Below are positions 1,794 through 7,248 of a stretch of DNA of 16,794 bases, piece by piece. Under the pieces are notes generated by a model. It had not been told where the DNA came from and searched no databases. It saw only the letters and a program-made list of their open reading frames with translations. Numbering within the stretch: the first letter of the stretch is position 1; each line of letters opens with the position of its first letter. Both the position numbers and the translations under genes were made by a program. Source of the DNA: a virus. Its lineage: Duplodnaviria; Heunggongvirae; Uroviricota; Caudoviricetes. The stretch is taken from the IMG/VR virus record IMGVR_UViG_2547132127_000011; one strand, written 5' to 3'.

Positions 1794-1937
1794 TCACGCT
1801 GGCGGCACGCAGCCGCCACACATCAATCATCTGAACACAGAGCTATAACCATGAAGATTGAATATACGCCAGAACGTGGGCGGGGATTCGTTCGCCCTGG
1901 TGAAACTGGAAAACCACAAAATTGGGGTTTTTCAGGC

Positions 1938-1965
1938 ATAAAAAAAGCGGCCCCGAAATGGAGCC
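1938..1965 (-). terminator. Candidate intrinsic terminator for leftward transcription
   Basis: On the minus strand: GCGGCTCC-ATTTC-GGGGCCGC stem-loop followed by TTTTTTT. On the plus strand the same hairpin is followed only by CTTTCT. Confidence 0.35.
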
Positions 1966-2296
1966 GCCTTTCTGAACAGATAACCCGCTGCGCCGTTTGT
2001 GTGTGTGATCCCAAACATAAGCACGGGGATGATAGCCGCTATCAGGCTGGTGGGCAATGCAATCAGTCTGGTTCAGTGCGTTGCCATAACTGCGAAGTTC
2101 TCTCCTTTGATGAGTATTCTTTAAGGTACTTCTCAAGGGCAAAAGAACACGGCGCGAATCGTTCTGATTCATGCTCTTTCTTTCTGCGTCGTCTTTTTCG
2201 TGCAGGTGATGTTTTTTCGGTTGATTCTTCGTTGGTCATTGTGTGCGCCTGTAAAGCAATGCGCCGTAGTACCTCACACCACGGCGCTGATAGTTT

Positions 2297-2476
2297 TTAT
2301 CCTTTGGGTTCTATGCCGCGTTGCTGTAATTCTTTGCGGATTATTCGCTTTATCCAGGCAGCAAGAGAATCATCGCCGTCCTGTTGTTGTGCCTTTTCCA
2401 TCTTTTCCCGTAAGTCAGGATCTAAACGGAACTGGAACGGAGGATTACCACGCCTTTCGTTTTTGTGTGTTGACAC
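2297..2476 (-). CDS. Putative ribbon-helix-helix (Arc/MetJ/CopG-like) DNA-binding protein, 59 aa, GTG start
   Basis: Not in the ORF track (below length cutoff). Translation VSTHKNERRGNPPFQFRLDPDLREKMEKAQQQDGDDSLAAWIKRIIRKELQQRGIEPKG shows a beta-strand (PFQFRL) then helix-turn-helix pattern like Arc repressor (PQFNLRWPREVLDLVRKVAEENGRSVNSEIYQRVM). GAGGTG lies 8 nt upstream of the GTG. Confidence 0.45.
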   Translation of the reverse strand: MSTHKNERRGNPPFQFRLDPDLREKMEKAQQQDGDDSLAAWIKRIIRKELQQRGIEPKG

Positions 2477-2499
2477 GTTAATTACACCTCAGGTAATGT
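2470..2499 (+). promoter_or_regulatory. Candidate sigma-70 promoter (TTGACA - 18 bp - TAATGT) for the rightward small-gene/primase operon, overlapping the start of the divergent RHH gene
   Basis: TTGACA at 2470..2475 and TAATGT at 2494..2499; flanked by TGTGT/ACACA dyads (e.g. GTAATGT...ACATTAC 2493..2523) that could be operator sites. Confidence 0.3.
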
Positions 2500-2605
2500 A
2501 TTTATGTGTAGTGACACATTACACACAATCAACACAAAAAGCAAAGCCCCGCACTGTAGGAGCAGTAACGGGGCTTCTAACCAACAACGTAAACTAGGAG
2601 CCGTT

Positions 2606-2806
2606 ATGGTTGCCGTAAATCATATACCACACCTTGTACACACACAAACGGCCTTTGTGTGGCGTTTTCTGGCACTGAGTGCCGGAGAATCCCAAATCAT
2701 CCACGTAACCGCTTGGACGGAACGCGAAGCGCGTAGCCGTTGCCCGTCCGGTTGTGTTGCTGTATTCGCCGCCCGTATTCGTCAGGGGGAAACCTATGCA
2801 CAATAA
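2606..2806 (+). CDS. Hypothetical small protein (66 aa)
   Basis: Internal ATG of track ORF 2504..2806 with AGGAG 5 nt upstream; first gene of a translationally coupled chain ending in the primase. Confidence 0.5.
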   Translation: MVAVNHIPHLVHTQTAFVWRFLALSAGESQIIHVTAWTEREARSRCPSGCVAVFAARIRQGETYAQ

Positions 2807-3017
2807 AACCACACCGAACGCAGCAGCCGCCGCACTCACTACGCTGATGCACGCGCTTATTGATATTGAATGCACGGCAGAGCTTGCGCAGGGAGAAGAA
2901 CAGAAAGACCGGACACAGTTCGCCCTGGAATGTATCCGATACATCGCAACGCGGTCACTGAATGACGCTAAAAATATTCTTGTTGCCGATTGTGAAAATG
3001 GGGGGGGTTATGCGTGA
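2796..3017 (+). CDS. Hypothetical small protein (73 aa)
   Basis: ATG at 2796 preceded by GGGGGA; overlaps the stop of the preceding gene by 11 nt (coupling). Confidence 0.45.
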   Translation: MHNKTTPNAAAAALTTLMHALIDIECTAELAQGEEQKDRTQFALECIRYIATRSLNDAKNILVADCENGGGYA

Positions 3018-3162
3018 TGATCGTTTTAATTCCCTGAAACAGGAATTTTCCGGCGTTCCTGATGATGCGGCTGATGCGCTTTCGTCAATGCCAGAACTTA
3101 TTAGAGCGGCTTTTTTCTTACTTTCCACGAGAGAATATAAATCAACGGGCTTGATGTACTGA
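3010..3162 (+). CDS. Hypothetical small protein (50 aa)
   Basis: ATG at 3010 overlapping the upstream stop (ATGCGTGA), G-rich tract upstream; internal start of track ORF 2962..3162. Confidence 0.4.
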   Translation: MRDDRFNSLKQEFSGVPDDAADALSSMPELIRAAFFLLSTREYKSTGLMY

Positions 3163-3231
3163 ATATCGCCGCCGATTATGCTGATTTCGTGACAGAGGTT
3201 ATTTTAAGAAAAACGACGGACGGGGATTAAT

Positions 3232-3465
3232 ATGCGTGATATTTACCACGAAACAATAGACCGCGCATTTCTTGCACTTTCTCACAGTGAAAACATGCTG
3301 GAAATATTGCGCATATGGCTTGAAACACTTGGCGACAATGAACGCGACAAACAAAAATCAAGAATTGCCACGGCATTAATAACGCTTCTTGAGCCTGTAA
3401 TAATGGAACTGCAAGAAATAGATCTATTGCACGACAGATATAAAGAACAGCACACCGGAGAATAA
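3232..3465 (+). CDS. Hypothetical protein (77 aa)
   Basis: ORF track; same orientation and operon context; acidic/helical composition. Confidence 0.5.
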   Translation: MRDIYHETIDRAFLALSHSENMLEILRIWLETLGDNERDKQKSRIATALITLLEPVIMELQEIDLLHDRYKEQHTGE

Positions 3466-3470
3466 AAATA

Positions 3471-3770
3471 ATGAAACTTAAATATTCTGGCTTAACTGCC
3501 AGTGGCAACACTCACCCTAAATTTACGCGCGGTGATATTTACCGCGACCAGTACGGCGGCATGGTAACGATTAAAGGCGTGGCAGAACGGCGCATCACCT
3601 ACCGCCGTGAAGGTTACGAATATGATTGCGTGATGCCTGTTTATCAATTCCGGCGTGATTTCACGCTGGTACAGGCAGCGCCCCGCAGTAAACCAACCAG
3701 CAGGGAGAAAGCACGCGCCAATATTCAGGAAATAAAAAAGATGCTTAACGTATTCAGGGGTAAAAAATGA
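3471..3770 (+). CDS. Hypothetical protein (99 aa)
   Basis: ORF track; GGAG about 11 nt upstream; stop overlaps the primase start (ATGA). Confidence 0.55.
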   Translation: MKLKYSGLTASGNTHPKFTRGDIYRDQYGGMVTIKGVAERRITYRREGYEYDCVMPVYQFRRDFTLVQAAPRSKPTSREKARANIQEIKKMLNVFRGKK

Positions 3771-5515
3771 AACTGGCACCGAACGTAAAAAAACAGCCAC
3801 GCGGAATAAAACACAAAGACACAGAGGTAATTATCTTTGCGGGTAGTGATGCCTGGTCGCACGCGAAACAATGGCAGGAGCAGGATGGCCCCGCATCCGG
3901 CGATAATGTGCCGCCTGTGTGGTTTGGGCCAAATCAGCTTGCCGAACTTGATGCACTGAAGATTGTTCCGGATGGAAAAAAACGCGTAAGGCTGTACCAG
4001 GCCGGAGAACTGGATTTGGTGGAGACCAAAAAGATTGGTCAGAAGCTGGCGGCGGCAGATATTCAGGACGCAAATTTTTACCCCGAAGGAATGCACGTCC
4101 AGAAGTGTGAAAACTGGCGGCGCTATCTGAATGCTGAGCGTGAAAATATTGCCGCAGGGCTTACCATGCCGGAGCAGAAAAATACGCAACTGGCACAAAT
4201 GGCAGACAGTGAGCGCGCGCAGCTGCTTGCCGAGCGCTTTGATGGCGTTTGTGTGCATCAGGAAAGTGAAATCGTTCACGTATGGCGCGGCGGGGTATGG
4301 TGTCCGGTCAGCACAATGGAACTTAGCCGCGAAATGGTGGCGATCTATTCAGAGCACAGGGCCACTTTCAGCAAGCGCGTAATCAATAACGCCGTGGAAG
4401 CGTTAAAAGTTATTGCCGAACCAATGGGCGAGCCGTCCGGCGATTTGCTGCCGTTCGCCAATGGTGCGCTTGACCTGAAAACGGGGGAATTTTCCCCGCA
4501 CACGCCGGAGAACTGGATCACCACGCACAACGGCATTGAGTACACGCCACCAGCACCAGGGGAGAACATCCGCGATAACGCGCTAAACTTTCATAAATGG
4601 CTTGAGCACGCAGCCGGAAAAGACCAGCGCAAGATGATGCGTATATGTGCCGCGCTGTACATGATTATGGTGAACCGGTACGACTGGCAGATGTTTATTG
4701 AGGCCACCGGAGACGGCGGGAGCGGTAAAAGTACATTCACACACATAGCCAGCCTTCTGGCAGGGAAACAGAACACGGTAAGCGCTGAAATGACATCGCT
4801 TGATGATGCTGGTGGACGTGCGCAGGTTGTCGGGAGTCGTCTTATCGTCCTGGCTGACCAGCCGAAATATACAGGCGAAGGAACGGGCATCAAGAAAATC
4901 ACGGGCGGTGACCCCGTGGAAATTAACCCGAAATACGAAAAGCGTTTCACGGCTGTAATCAGGGCGGTGGTGCTGGCGACCAACAATAACCCGATGATAT
5001 TCACCGAACGGGCCGGAGGTGTGGCACGTCGTCGCGTGATTTTCCGTTTCGACAATATCGTTAGTGAGGCCGAAAAAGACAGGGAGCTACCGGAAAAGAT
5101 TGCGGCTGAAATCCCTGTCATTATCCGCCGATTGCTGGCGAACTTTACCGACTCTGAGAAAGCACGGGCTTTACTACTGGAACAGCGTGACGGTGATGAA
5201 GCTCTGGCAATAAAGCAACAGACGGATCCGGTTATTGAGTTTTGCCAGTTCCTGAATTTTCTGGAGGAAGCACGCGGCCTGATGATGGGCGGCGGTGGCG
5301 ATTCAGTGAAGTACACGACCAGAAACAGCCTTTACCGCGTCTATCTGGCGTTTATGGCGTACGCAGGCAGGAGCAAACCGCTAAACGTAAATGACTTTGG
5401 CAAGGCTATGAAGCCAGCCGCGAAAGTTTACGGACATGAATATATTACGCGGAAAGTTAAGGGAGTAACGCAGACTAACGCAATAACAACAGACGAGTGC
5501 GACGCGTTTTTATAA
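3767..5515 (+). CDS. Replication protein: P4-family primase C-terminal / D5-N / SF3 helicase-type P-loop NTPase (PICI pri-rep-like)
   Basis: 582-aa ORF with Walker A TGDGGSGKST, a Walker B-like hydrophobic run (RLIVLADQP), and downstream KKITGGDPVEINPKYEKRF...RRRVIFRF block characteristic of the phage/plasmid primase P4-family C-terminal domain. Confidence 0.85.
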   Translation: MKLAPNVKKQPRGIKHKDTEVIIFAGSDAWSHAKQWQEQDGPASGDNVPPVWFGPNQLAELDALKIVPDGKKRVRLYQAGELDLVETKKIGQKLAAADIQDANFYPEGMHVQKCENWRRYLNAERENIAAGLTMPEQKNTQLAQMADSERAQLLAERFDGVCVHQESEIVHVWRGGVWCPVSTMELSREMVAIYSEHRATFSKRVINNAVEALKVIAEPMGEPSGDLLPFANGALDLKTGEFSPHTPENWITTHNGIEYTPPAPGENIRDNALNFHKWLEHAAGKDQRKMMRICAALYMIMVNRYDWQMFIEATGDGGSGKSTFTHIASLLAGKQNTVSAEMTSLDDAGGRAQVVGSRLIVLADQPKYTGEGTGIKKITGGDPVEINPKYEKRFTAVIRAVVLATNNNPMIFTERAGGVARRRVIFRFDNIVSEAEKDRELPEKIAAEIPVIIRRLLANFTDSEKARALLLEQRDGDEALAIKQQTDPVIEFCQFLNFLEEARGLMMGGGGDSVKYTTRNSLYRVYLAFMAYAGRSKPLNVNDFGKAMKPAAKVYGHEYITRKVKGVTQTNAITTDECDAFL

Positions 5516-5530
5516 TTTTTTGTAATTGCT

Positions 5531-5756
5531 GTCTACCCTGTCTACCTGAGTAAAGAAAAATACATTTAATTCAGTGCATTAAGTTAGGTAGATAGCCTTT
5601 TTTTACTGTCTACCCACTATCTACCCTCTCTACCTGATTTTACCTGAATCAGACAGGGAGGTAGACACGGGGTAGATAGTGGATAAAAGCACTCTACCCC
5701 GCTGAAAGCAGCGCCATTACTGGCATGAGGGCCACTAAGGTAGATAAGGTAGACAA
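5531..5756. repeat. Iteron cluster: at least 11 copies of GGTAGAYA / TRTCTACC in both orientations; candidate replication origin
   Basis: Read directly: GTCTACC at 5531, 5608; TCTACC at 5541, 5620, 5629, 5693; GGTAGA at 5587, 5660, 5671, 5739, 5748. Lies immediately downstream of the primase/helicase gene, analogous to P4 ori/crr iterons bound by alpha protein. Confidence 0.6.
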
Positions 5757-5803
5757 GGGGAGGCACAACTCAAAACTTTTTAAACGAGGGGGTAAAAATA
5801 AAT

Positions 5804-6082
5804 ATGCACACTTCAGGGAAATTTAATAAATCATTCAAAAAACGCAGAGACAGAACAGAACCGAAATATCGCGCGTTAGACATGACAGAGCACGCTTTAA
5901 AGGTGGCAATCAGAACGATAGACCGCCACGCGGGGGAAGGATACGCGAAAGCACATCCCGAACTGATAAGCGCATTCATGACCACGACGGCGGCAAATTT
6001 TGCCACGCTGACAGAGCGGGAGATTGCCGAAGCGGAACAGGTAACAACAATCAACGTTAAAACCGGAGAGGTGGAATCATGA
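5804..6082 (+). CDS. Hypothetical protein (92 aa)
   Basis: ORF track; GAGGGGG upstream; first gene after the iteron region. Confidence 0.5.
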   Translation: MHTSGKFNKSFKKRRDRTEPKYRALDMTEHALKVAIRTIDRHAGEGYAKAHPELISAFMTTTAANFATLTEREIAEAEQVTTINVKTGEVES

Positions 6083-6384
6083 GCGAACCAAAATTTGGTG
6101 AAAAATTTTACAAGCACAACGGACGGATCACGATTCTGCAAATAAGCGCAGCTACACCAGGCTGGTGGGTTGAAACAGACGAAGGATCCTCACCCGTGGC
6201 ATCATGGGCGCTTTGTGTGCTTAGTTACCCTGACCGCGATGTGTATCAGGATATTCTGCCTGTGATATCCACTGACAAAGGCATGAAACCCGTAGACATC
6301 AAAAAAATGGGGTTTCAGTGCGTAATGCTCACTGAAAAAATGATGGAAGAGATGAAAAAGAACAATGCCGGATCGCTTCACTGA
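6079..6384 (+). CDS. Hypothetical protein (101 aa)
   Basis: ORF track; start overlaps the upstream stop (ATGA coupling). Confidence 0.55.
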   Translation: MSEPKFGEKFYKHNGRITILQISAATPGWWVETDEGSSPVASWALCVLSYPDRDVYQDILPVISTDKGMKPVDIKKMGFQCVMLTEKMMEEMKKNNAGSLH

Positions 6385-6393
6385 GGTGGCAAT

Positions 6394-6555
6394 ATGACAG
6401 CACAAATTGCAGCTTACGGGCGGCTGGTGGGCGACCCGCTGGTAAAACAGAGCAGCAAGGGCACACCGGAGCCGCCAACGGAGAACTACGCAGACCTGAG
6501 AAATGCAGTAAATCGCACTTACGCAGACATGGGGCTGAGCAAATTAGCAGAGTAG
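6394..6555 (+). CDS. Hypothetical small protein (53 aa)
   Basis: Not in ORF track (short). ATG at 6394 with GAGGTG 5 nt upstream; translation MTAQIAAYGRLVGDPLVKQSSKGTPEPPTENYADLRNAVNRTYADMGLSKLAE; followed by the terminator at 6579. Confidence 0.4.
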   Translation: MTAQIAAYGRLVGDPLVKQSSKGTPEPPTENYADLRNAVNRTYADMGLSKLAE

Positions 6556-6578
6556 GAATATCAGAACCACACCACGCA

Positions 6579-6601
6579 GCCGGAGCAATCCGGCTTTTTT
6601 T
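6579..6601 (+). terminator. Intrinsic terminator GCCGGA-GCAA-TCCGGC + T7 (copy 1)
   Basis: Perfect 6-bp stem, tetraloop, run of 7 T; read directly. Confidence 0.65.
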
Positions 6602-6696
6602 GCGTCATTTGAAACGGTATGGAGCACTACTGGCTTTTCGTCACGGCCCGGCATAGTTACTATCTGAAACAAACAGACACAACAGAGGAAAACGCA

Positions 6697-6921
6697 ATGC
6701 CGATGAAATTTGATGAGATACTTAAACAGCGTGATAAATACCATGCTGACAACATGGAGACGATGAATATCACTGATTACCGCGCATTTCTGGAAACGGG
6801 GGCGCTGATTGAAAAGGATCATCATGGTTTTGTTCGTTGCGCGCTATCCGGTGAAATGCTGGCAGTAAATCCTGAACAGACAGATGCATTGATAGAATTT
6901 CTGAAAGGGATCAGAGACTGA
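6697..6921 (+). CDS. Hypothetical protein (74 aa)
   Basis: Internal ATG of track ORF 6619..6921 with GAGGA 7 nt upstream; sits between two copies of the same terminator hairpin. Confidence 0.5.
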   Translation: MPMKFDEILKQRDKYHADNMETMNITDYRAFLETGALIEKDHHGFVRCALSGEMLAVNPEQTDALIEFLKGIRD

Positions 6922-6941
6922 GCACCCATACAGCACATACA

Positions 6942-6962
6942 GCCGGAGCAATCCGGCTTTTT
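6942..6962 (+). terminator. Intrinsic terminator GCCGGA-GCAA-TCCGGC + T5 (copy 2, same 23-bp unit as 6579..6601)
   Basis: Identical stem-loop to copy 1 followed by TTTTTGTTATTTTTT. Confidence 0.65.
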
Positions 6963-6981
6963 GTTATTTTTTGTAAATTAT

Positions 6982-7010
6982 TTGTTCGTGGTTGTTCCAC
7001 GTTGTTCACT
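6982..7010. promoter_or_regulatory. Three 10-bp-phased TTGTTC units (TTGTTCGTGG TTGTTCCACG TTGTTCACTG) about 215 bp upstream of the capsid start
   Basis: Read directly; 15-mer TTGTTCCACGTTGTT (6992..7006) is repeated exactly at 15201..15215; array is the reverse complement of the AACAA array at 1286..1325. Confidence 0.4.
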
Positions 7011-7224
7011 GAGCGGATCGGCATATTTTACCCGAACTGAATCATGATTATTCTCGCCCGTGGTGCCAGGACGCTGGGGCCACTTTCCCGCCTGTTAATG
7101 TGCTCGCCAATATTCATTACCAGGCGGGAAAACGATCGGTGCGATTACTGATTTCCTTATGAAAAACGGTTGAGTGTTTGCCGCGTCCTGGAGTTCCTTA
7201 CTTAACCCCAGGACTTTTTTTATG

Positions 7225-7233
7225 CAGAGAATA
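7225..7233. repeat. IS1 target-site duplication, left copy (CAGAGAATA)
   Basis: Identical 9-mer at 8002..8010 immediately flanking the other IS1 end. Confidence 0.9.
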
Positions 7234-7248
7234 GGTAATGACTCCAAC

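Follow-up and report, generated by a model that had tools for sequence, protein, structure and literature searches.

Why should a gene of 74 amino acids (aa) lie between two copies of the same transcription terminator? This question is raised by the small-gene block at positions 5804-6921 of IMG/VR virus record IMGVR_UViG_2547132127_000011, a stretch of 16,794 nt assigned to the Caudoviricetes and referred to here, at its full length, as the window. The first-pass annotation, made from the letters alone, had described four small open reading frames (ORFs) between an origin and a head module, and had read the last of them as a self-contained expression cassette or moron in a variable region of the kind that carries defence and interference genes. 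All four ORFs, of 92, 101, 53 and 74 aa, were confirmed on the plus strand and are numbered ORF1 to ORF4; related loci are designated by L numbers. The window was assigned to the phage-inducible chromosomal islands of the capsid-forming kind (cf-PICIs) because the architecture of its relatives matches that of the cf-PICI prototype, EcCIEDL933, as presented by Alqurainy et al. (bioRxiv 10.1101/2022.09.08.507074); it is best described as a decaying island of the EcCIEDL933 type, located between roxA and phoQ. From left to right, the order is origin, ORF1, ORF2, an ssb'-'perC scar (ORF3), the first terminator (T1), ORF4, the second terminator (T2), and then a late control region and the capsid operon. 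The explanation judged somewhat better than even is that the block makes up the far end of such an island's early (replication) region, with the identical terminators acting both as transcriptional punctuation and as recombination joints.

The repeated terminator as a probable module boundary

The repeated unit, CAGCCGGAGCAATCCGGCTTTTT, is 23 nt long and occurs in two exact copies on the plus strand, at 6577-6599 (T1) and 6940-6962 (T2), 363 nt apart. The duplication reported around 6697..6921 was therefore exact, although the positions first given for it (6579 and 6942) were displaced by 2 nt. The chance expectation for an exact 23-nt repeat within 2 kb was estimated at approximately 1e-7. 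Both copies have the form of an intrinsic, Rho-independent terminator, i.e., a G+C-rich hairpin followed by a U tract on the coding strand, with a 7-bp stem containing 5 G-C pairs and a GCAA loop. T1, which closes the perC module, has its stem at 6578-6595 followed by U7, and gave a folding energy of -15.7 kcal/mol (z = -4.0 relative to shuffled sequences). T2, which closes ORF4 and the early region and coincides with a mosaic junction, has the tract U5GUUAU6 and gave -14.1 kcal/mol (z = -4.5). Both copies recur in independent complete genomes, including that of EDL933, which argues that the repeat is neither a chance match nor an artefact. T1 is retained after perC in L001, L002, L005 and EDL933, with a GAAA loop variant, and in the island of Escherichia coli 042 (L005) the hairpin occurs a third time, at the end of another gene. 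In many loci the ORF4 homologue is followed by an unrelated terminator, so that ending the transcription unit at this place appears to be a common design. An ORF of ~37 aa running across T1 (window ~6543-6656) is annotated as 'trigger factor' in RefSeq (L001 10045-10158, L149 2465-2580); it is frameshifted in EDL933 and seems to be a spurious call that covers the terminator and the spacer following it.

Comparison with close relatives shows T1 and T2 as the apparent points at which recombination swaps or deletes modules, ORF4 being lost precisely between the repeats. The relatives are organised either as PerC-T1-ORF4-T2-leader or as PerC-terminator-leader, with breakpoints located exactly at the terminator. 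In L003 the PerC protein is identical to that of L002 (WP_000233314.1), ORF4 is gone, and the single terminator that remains has an upstream flank that is a hybrid of those of T1 and T2, which is the product expected of crossover or slippage between the two copies. The three loci without ORF4 (L003, L004, and L006) consist of PerC, a single terminator, and the leader, and when they are set against L002 and EDL933 the gene is found present or absent between the same neighbours, as is expected of a moron. A second type of island, represented by E. coli 042 and O157:H7 TR01 (L150), has its early half in common with the cf-PICI. The homology extends from the left through T2 and ends at the last base of T2, beyond which these islands carry a lambda-like major capsid protein, a head decoration protein and TerS instead of the HK97-type module; in TR01 the island is inserted at the phoQ-side attachment site that the window island also uses. 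Identity between the window and EDL933 is ~86% across ORF4 and 96-100% from T2 onward.

ORF4 and its distribution

ORF4 (6697..6921, plus strand) encodes a small acidic alpha/beta protein without a DNA-binding signature. Its isoelectric point (pI) is 5.0, within a family range of 4.4-5.9, and its AlphaFold2 model had a predicted local distance difference test (pLDDT) score of 91.5. The protein matched phrog_1957, a family of unknown function, from end to end (E = 2.4e-40). An in-frame extension to 100 aa (6619-6921) exists, and the 74-aa start is supported by the PHROG profile and by the homologues; this start has a GAGGA Shine-Dalgarno sequence located 7 nt before the ATG. The spacer or 5' untranslated region between T1 and ORF4 (6600..6696, plus strand, 97 nt) shares 86-87% identity with its counterparts in L005 and EDL933. 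No sigma-70-like promoter with at least 9 of 12 matches was found in this spacer, the best site by eye having about 7, so that the own promoter expected of a moron was lacking at the scan threshold; an activator-dependent promoter within 6600-6696 is possible. The earlier proposal of a discrete cassette is thus borne out as regards its limits, which fall exactly at the terminators, and not as regards self-contained expression. The ratio of nonsynonymous to synonymous substitution (dN/dS) among E. coli variants was 0.09-0.20, which, together with the distant homologues described below, indicates a real gene under purifying selection. Its G+C content is about 0.44, compared with about 0.50 in the flanks.

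Database searches gave little for this protein. The profile for DUF1398 (PF07166) scored 13.2 bits against the 74-aa form and 16 bits against the 100-aa form, below its gathering threshold of 22 bits, and a weak match of the ORF4 profile to N.BspD6I (E = 0.004 over 39 residues) was not used as evidence. A tblastn search of 50,697 phage genomes returned no match to ORF4. PDB sequence searches gave no significant match for ORF1, ORF2 or ORF4, and PADLOC returned no family at E ≤ 1 for any of the four proteins of the block.

Homologues of ORF4, collected by an exhaustive HMMER and profile search, are 75-103 aa long and 32-49% identical, and were found across the Enterobacterales (Klebsiella, Enterobacter, Citrobacter, Salmonella, Kluyvera, Phytobacter, Leclercia, Erwinia, Proteus, Xenorhabdus, and Arsenophonus) as well as in Gilliamella. 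Twelve loci were examined in a species-level genome collection (from Shigella, Gilliamella, Enterobacter, Phytobacter, Kluyvera, Leclercia, Erwinia, Proteus, and Xenorhabdus), and in at least 10 of them ORF4 is preceded by the replication gene and origin and has HK97-type capsid, protease and portal genes downstream. In the cf-PICIs of Klebsiella/Enterobacter and Xenorhabdus, no other gene stands between the homologue and the capsid gene. The gene is also present in islands with unrelated morphogenesis modules, namely those with a lambda-like capsid and decoration protein (E. coli 042, O157 TR01) and a Klebsiella island with a ClpP-capsid fusion. Retention of the same position across genera at 32-49% identity marks ORF4 as a long-standing backbone gene of these satellites and not a recent addition, which runs counter to the moron reading of the first-pass annotation.

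At the same time, the gene appears to be dispensable. Among 5426 complete E. coli genomes, searched for ORF4 and for the late leader (query, window 6963-7232), ORF4 was present in 539, the leader in 360, and both were contiguous in 214, while ~115-146 genomes had a near-identical leader without ORF4; these counts partly reflect clonal sampling and are not independent events. In IMG/VR, 83 non-identical loci with a related leader and at least 3 kb of upstream sequence were compared: an ORF4 homologue lay within 3 kb upstream of the leader in 59, and neither ORF4 nor PerC was present in 24. The proposition that every cf-PICI has at least one of ORF4 and PerC was rejected on this result. The combination of uniform conservation and a housekeeping role, which had been named beforehand as evidence against an accessory cassette, is not what the presence/absence comparison found, since the cassette is missing from ~29% of the viral-contig loci as well as from the E. 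coli genomes just mentioned. Leader-bearing loci without ORF4 also make the gene unlikely as an essential activator of the late operon. It is possible, though doubtful, that ORF4 is the founder of an uncharacterised, satellite-restricted family of small acidic proteins, with a fold unmatched in the searchable solved and predicted viral structures, that moves between PICI families in a terminator-bounded cassette. Should the protein disable a host or helper protein (a nuclease, terminase or transcription factor), it would represent a new module of satellite-helper or satellite-host interaction.

Late control region, cargo site and the competing explanations

A putative late control region (6970..7054, plus strand) follows T2 at a distance of only 7 nt. 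It comprises the motif TTTGTAAATTATTTGTTC (6970-6987), which occurs once in the window and lies directly after T2; three TTGTTC repeats at 6982, 6992 and 7002, with a 10-bp spacing; and -35-like (TTTACC, 7027-7032) and -10-like (TATTCT, 7049-7054) elements. At least eight genera have cf-PICIs in which the motif TTTGTAAATTATTTGTTC precedes the capsid ATG by ~205-253 nt, with or without cargo in front of the motif. Past the ORF4 stop, a TTTGTAAAT-like motif begins after 3-48 nt in the E. coli and Klebsiella-type islands that were sampled, and the motif persists in E. coli islands in which ORF4, the terminator and the leader have diverged. Its position makes this region the candidate late promoter. 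Counterparts of the whole late region (window 6963-7221) were located at L007 8246-8466, L014 8262-8490, and L027 3997-4234.

The capsid-operon leader (7060..7221, plus strand) is predicted to form three helices, P1 (7060-7083), P2 (7084-7131), and P3, a terminator-like hairpin (7185-7213) followed by U7; in the lineage of the window, this last hairpin and its U7 stand right before the ATG. The folding z-score was -3.7. Related leaders are about 130-160 nt long, and the 5' block GGCACTCAGRCGTGANCCGCCA is common to more than 120 IMG/VR contigs (L029-L148). In an alignment of 35 leaders, 94.5% of the cells in the three helices were paired and 13 pairs were changed on both sides. None of 500 shuffles reached the observed values, and sliding the 3' partners by 1-3 columns reduced pairing to 35-46%. 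Most of the covariation is carried by P2. P1 is near-invariant except in the lineage of the window, where CUCA/UGAG is replaced by CCAG/CUGG and the GACG loop is unchanged. A long-range antiterminator pairing between CCAGGACGC and GCGTCCTGG was dropped as a general model in favour of the local P1 hairpin, given the retained GACG loop and the compensatory changes; in the window's own lineage such a pairing is possible. Rfam contained no family for this region of the window or for the related leaders. The late region and leader may constitute an undescribed cis-regulatory element, and in tail-stealing satellites the timing of capsid production could depend on P1-P2-P3 as a new cis-regulatory RNA.

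The region between the replication and packaging modules did prove to be variable, as had been claimed. In other genera the real cargo hotspot appears to lie between ORF4, which is often ended by a terminator, and the TTTGTAAAT motif. Among the 59 IMG/VR loci with ORF4, 33 have 0.3-2 kb between the gene and the late motif, and in the other 26 ORF4 stands directly against the motif region. The genes at this site in the genome loci are diverse (e.g., L017 5262-6652, L018 5241-6532, L010 8262-9160, and those in L019, L020, and L023-L026); some are on the reverse strand, including a recurrent 170-aa protein, and some encode predicted membrane proteins. No PADLOC match was obtained for them, and the sole Pfam match above the gathering threshold was DUF3775. 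In the window the site is empty.

Under the favoured explanation, in which the block closes the early region, transcription arriving from the left would mostly end at T1, and ORF4, as the last early gene, would be transcribed either by polymerase that reads past T1 or from a start within the 97-nt spacer that is weak or depends on an activator. By shielding the late promoter, T2 would leave the capsid operon under its own control. ORF4 itself would be a non-essential protein-binding modulator of the induced cycle of the island, which is the weakest step of the scheme; the target could be a host or helper-phage protein, and the gene is not taken to be a defence effector or a late activator. Several points weigh against this explanation. 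Terminator function, the late promoter, and where early transcription starts and which way it runs were all deduced from sequence. No fold, domain or defence model matched ORF4 in the fold, Pfam, NCBIfam, PADLOC, and PDB searches. A T2-like insulator is not universal, Klebsiella-type islands such as L007 being devoid of a terminator after ORF4, and the E. coli census is partly clonal. The presence/absence pattern of ORF4 would fit an accessory cargo gene equally well.

This last point leads to the moron-type accessory cassette, which would have its own spacer promoter and terminator and a role in phage interference, anti-defence or fitness. Many anti-restriction and anti-nuclease proteins are small and acidic, as is the product of ORF4, and in one variant the protein would be an acidic DNA mimic or nuclease inhibitor. 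Presence or absence between the same flanking sequences, insulation from neighbouring transcription by the flanking terminators, the slightly lower G+C content, and the adjacency to a site of variable cargo in other genera all agree with it. It was nevertheless considered unlikely, in view of the missing promoter-like site, the empty PADLOC, Pfam and NCBIfam searches, the absence of the gene from the phage genome collection, and a position conserved across genera to an extent not expected of recent cargo. The island EcCIEDL933 has the same cassette, yet it is reported not to block its helper phages (bioRxiv 10.1101/2022.09.08.507074); the defence or interference role suggested by the first-pass annotation thus finds no footing. 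If ORF4 were instead a regulator of the late (capsid) operon, comparable to Q in lambda or Delta/Ogr in P4/P2, its place upstream of the late control region would be explained, and the short distance from its stop to the motif, the loci in which the two are directly adjacent, and the maintenance of this pairing across genera would all be in keeping. Such a role is very improbable: leaders are retained without ORF4 and PerC in the 24 IMG/VR loci and near-identical without ORF4 in the E. coli genomes, cargo separates gene from motif in the 33 loci given above, the protein is acidic and gave no helix-turn-helix or other DNA-binding match, and the gene is also found in islands whose capsid module is unrelated and which have no motif at that position.

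The hairpins themselves admit another arrangement, in which T1, T2 and the pre-capsid hairpin would be serial antitermination checkpoints, read through by a polymerase modified at an alpA-dependent early promoter, so that a single long transcript would give ORF4 and the capsid operon only after induction. Three terminator-like hairpins do stand in series on the coding strand from the early genes to the capsid, and the island encodes an AlpA-family protein. The AlpA of Pseudomonas aeruginosa is a processive antiterminator (PMC7969949, PMC9371919), and alpA is needed for induction and transfer of EcCIEDL933 (bioRxiv 10.1101/2022.09.08.507074). The AlpA of the window, however, matched only PDB 8c3t ('AlpA family phage regulatory protein'), the P. 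aeruginosa protein not being among its matches, which leaves homology to the antiterminator unproven; no link of PICI AlpA to antitermination was found in the literature searched, in many cf-PICIs ORF4 is not set off from the early genes by a terminator, and the conserved motif with -35/-10-like elements between T2 and the leader favours a separate late promoter. Serial antitermination was accordingly rated as quite improbable. That the repeat is functionless, having arisen by chance or as an artefact of assembly or duplication among non-coding ORFs, has nothing in its favour except that short repeats in two copies frequently occur by chance. This was refuted by the exact identity of the two copies over 23 nt and their presence in independent complete genomes, and for the ORFs by the purifying selection on ORF4 and its distant homologues, and its probability is vanishingly small.

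The remaining genes, the island and known systems

The putative replication origin (5520..5790) consists of approximately 12 iterons, (C/T)TGTCTACC, in both orientations with an AT-rich core between them. The iterons form direct and inverted repeat families and are placed immediately after the stop of pri-rep (5515) and before ORF1. ORF1 (5804..6082, plus strand, 92 aa), the first gene past the origin, encodes a basic protein (pI 9.05) of phrog_1231 (E = 2.9e-51), a function-unknown family; there was no match in Pfam, NCBIfam, PADLOC or PDB, and a homologue with 43.5% identity occupies the same position in Xenorhabdus cf-PICIs. ORF2 (6079..6384, plus strand, 101 aa) belongs to phrog_27268 (E = 5.4e-70), likewise of unknown function, and is variably present, being found in L001-L004 and not in L005, L006 or EDL933. 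It had no match in Pfam, NCBIfam, PDB, or (tblastn) the 50,697 phage genomes.

ORF3 (6394..6555, plus strand, 53 aa) is an in-frame joining of ssb codons 1-24 to perC codons 54-82; by blastp the first part was 79% identical to SSB and the second 100% identical to PerC. Alignment to L002 gave two pieces overlapping at window 6455-6466, with L002 position 7647 joined to 8143, a deletion of ~496 bp. The ORF is best read as the scar of this ssb-perC deletion and not as a gene in its own right. It does not encode a full-length PerC regulator, of which the N-terminal 53 residues are deleted (the Pfam PerC profile, PF06069, of 90 positions, matched at positions 50-77 only, with 22.9 bits against a cut-off of 22.6), nor an SSB with an OB-fold domain, only SSB residues 1-24 being left. 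In relatives that are intact here, ssb (136 aa) and perC (82-90 aa) take the place of the ORF, whereas the deletion is shared by L001 and by an island of Shigella flexneri (L015). In a divergent E. coli cf-PICI (L027) the perC slot, directly upstream of the ORF4 homologue, holds a gene of the ProQ/FinO family (3179-3721), and a ProQ-like match was found in 6 of the 83 IMG/VR loci. Taken together, the comparisons show ORF1 and ORF4 as old satellite genes and ORF2, ssb and perC as a variable insert, crippled by deletion in the window.

The window aligns to E. coli chromosomes at 95-99% identity over 5500-7233, and the island site in relatives is between roxA and phoQ, with phoQ at the right end of the window. 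The relatives have, in order, a tyrosine integrase, an AlpA-type regulator, a primase/helicase, the small-gene block, and head and packaging genes (HK97-type major capsid, prohead protease, portal, head closure and connectors, HNH endonuclease, TerS, and TerL). The window contains int (1-1230), an AlpA gene (1605-1793; PF05930, E = 5e-18), a DUF4222 gene, and the PICI-type replication gene pri-rep (3767-5515), and with them the integration and replication set of a PICI, including a PICI-type origin. It also has the further marks of a cf-PICI, i.e., its own HK97-type capsid, protease, portal, connectors, HNH, TerS and TerL genes, no tail or lysis genes, a size of 10-15 kb, and a dedicated attachment site. 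The segment from alpA to DUF4222 (1851-3465) is only patchily homologous to L001 and L002 and looks like a further mosaic segment; its ORFs of 248, 100, 66, and 77 aa had no match in Pfam.

The window is collinear with annotated relatives across roxA-phoQ, and its head and packaging genes are damaged. The location first given to the block, between origin and head module, was correct, with the iterons upstream and the capsid ATG (7222) downstream, except that the head module is interrupted at once by an insertion sequence (IS) of 768 bp (7234-8001, minus orientation, with insA/insB ORFs on the minus strand). It lies in codons 2-4 of the major capsid gene, and the 9-bp target duplication, CAGAGAATA, is at 7225-7233 and 8002-8010. 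From its end sequence we take this element to be IS1; the stretch matches about 10 places per genome, as expected of an IS. The capsid gene additionally has a nonsense codon, W276* (TGA at 8824-8826, TGG in L001). A 92-bp deletion relative to L001 and L002, between GACCCCGCC direct repeats at window ~12255-12270, has taken out the intergenic region upstream of terS, which probably contained cos, together with the terS start codon and first few codons; the longest surviving terS ORF has a GTG start and 103 aa instead of 118. On account of the IS1, the nonsense codon and the terS-start deletion, the window copy is predicted to be immobile. For the window itself, the practical upshot is a decaying, probably immobile island in which one of the four 'genes' of the block is a deletion scar.

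The island type was already known, and the present results do not overturn current understanding. cf-PICIs were described recently, however, and the control of their own capsid operon was not found described in the literature searched; within the searched text of the EcCIEDL933 paper, no discussion of the small genes, the terminators or the late promoter was found. What is new is the detail: a terminator whose repeated copies join modules, a satellite protein family that is conserved yet dispensable and has no matching fold, the place where cargo is inserted, and a conserved leader with its late control region. The boundary between early and late regions is placed at a repeated terminator where modules are swapped and a gene is lost, and three things are told apart, namely a conserved backbone of ORF1 and ORF4, the variable inserts comprising ORF2, ssb and perC, and the cargo site proper. 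For experiments, the leads are ORF4, the structured leader and the TTTGTAAAT motif.

Of the known systems, EcCIEDL933 is the closest. It has the same order of int, alpA, rep and ori, then the block and the HK97-type capsid, protease, portal, connectors, HNH, TerS and TerL genes; it also has PerC-T1-ORF4-T2-leader, with an ORF4 about 92% identical. The window differs in having pri-rep in place of the DUF927 replication gene and an additional ORF2, in the loss of most of ssb and perC, and in its inactivation by IS1, the nonsense codon and the terS-start deletion. Accessory regions of PICIs and Staphylococcus aureus pathogenicity islands (SaPIs) carry interference or immunity genes, and the window resembles them in its variable content between replication and packaging modules. 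It differs in that no gene of the block matches a defence model and in that the cargo site lies downstream of the terminator of ORF4 and is unoccupied. PerC-type genes are known accessory genes of PICIs (PMC11773190).

Judged as a genome architecture, the block combines features of two established concepts of phage genomics, morons and module-boundary sequences. Like the phage morons, a concept reportedly due to Juhala and Hendrix, ORF4 is present or absent between the same neighbours, is bounded by terminators (T2 being its own downstream terminator), and has a slightly different base composition; unlike them, it has no recognisable promoter, is flanked by the same terminator on both sides, and holds a position that is conserved across genera instead of sporadic. 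In the modular theory ascribed to Susskind and Botstein, 'linker' sequences at the module boundaries of lambdoid phages are said to guide the homologous exchange of modules. As with those linkers, a short conserved sequence recurs at the module boundaries of the window and the mosaic breakpoints coincide with it; unlike a linker, this sequence is a functional-looking intrinsic terminator, arranged as a close direct repeat that can delete the gene it encloses, as L003 exemplifies.

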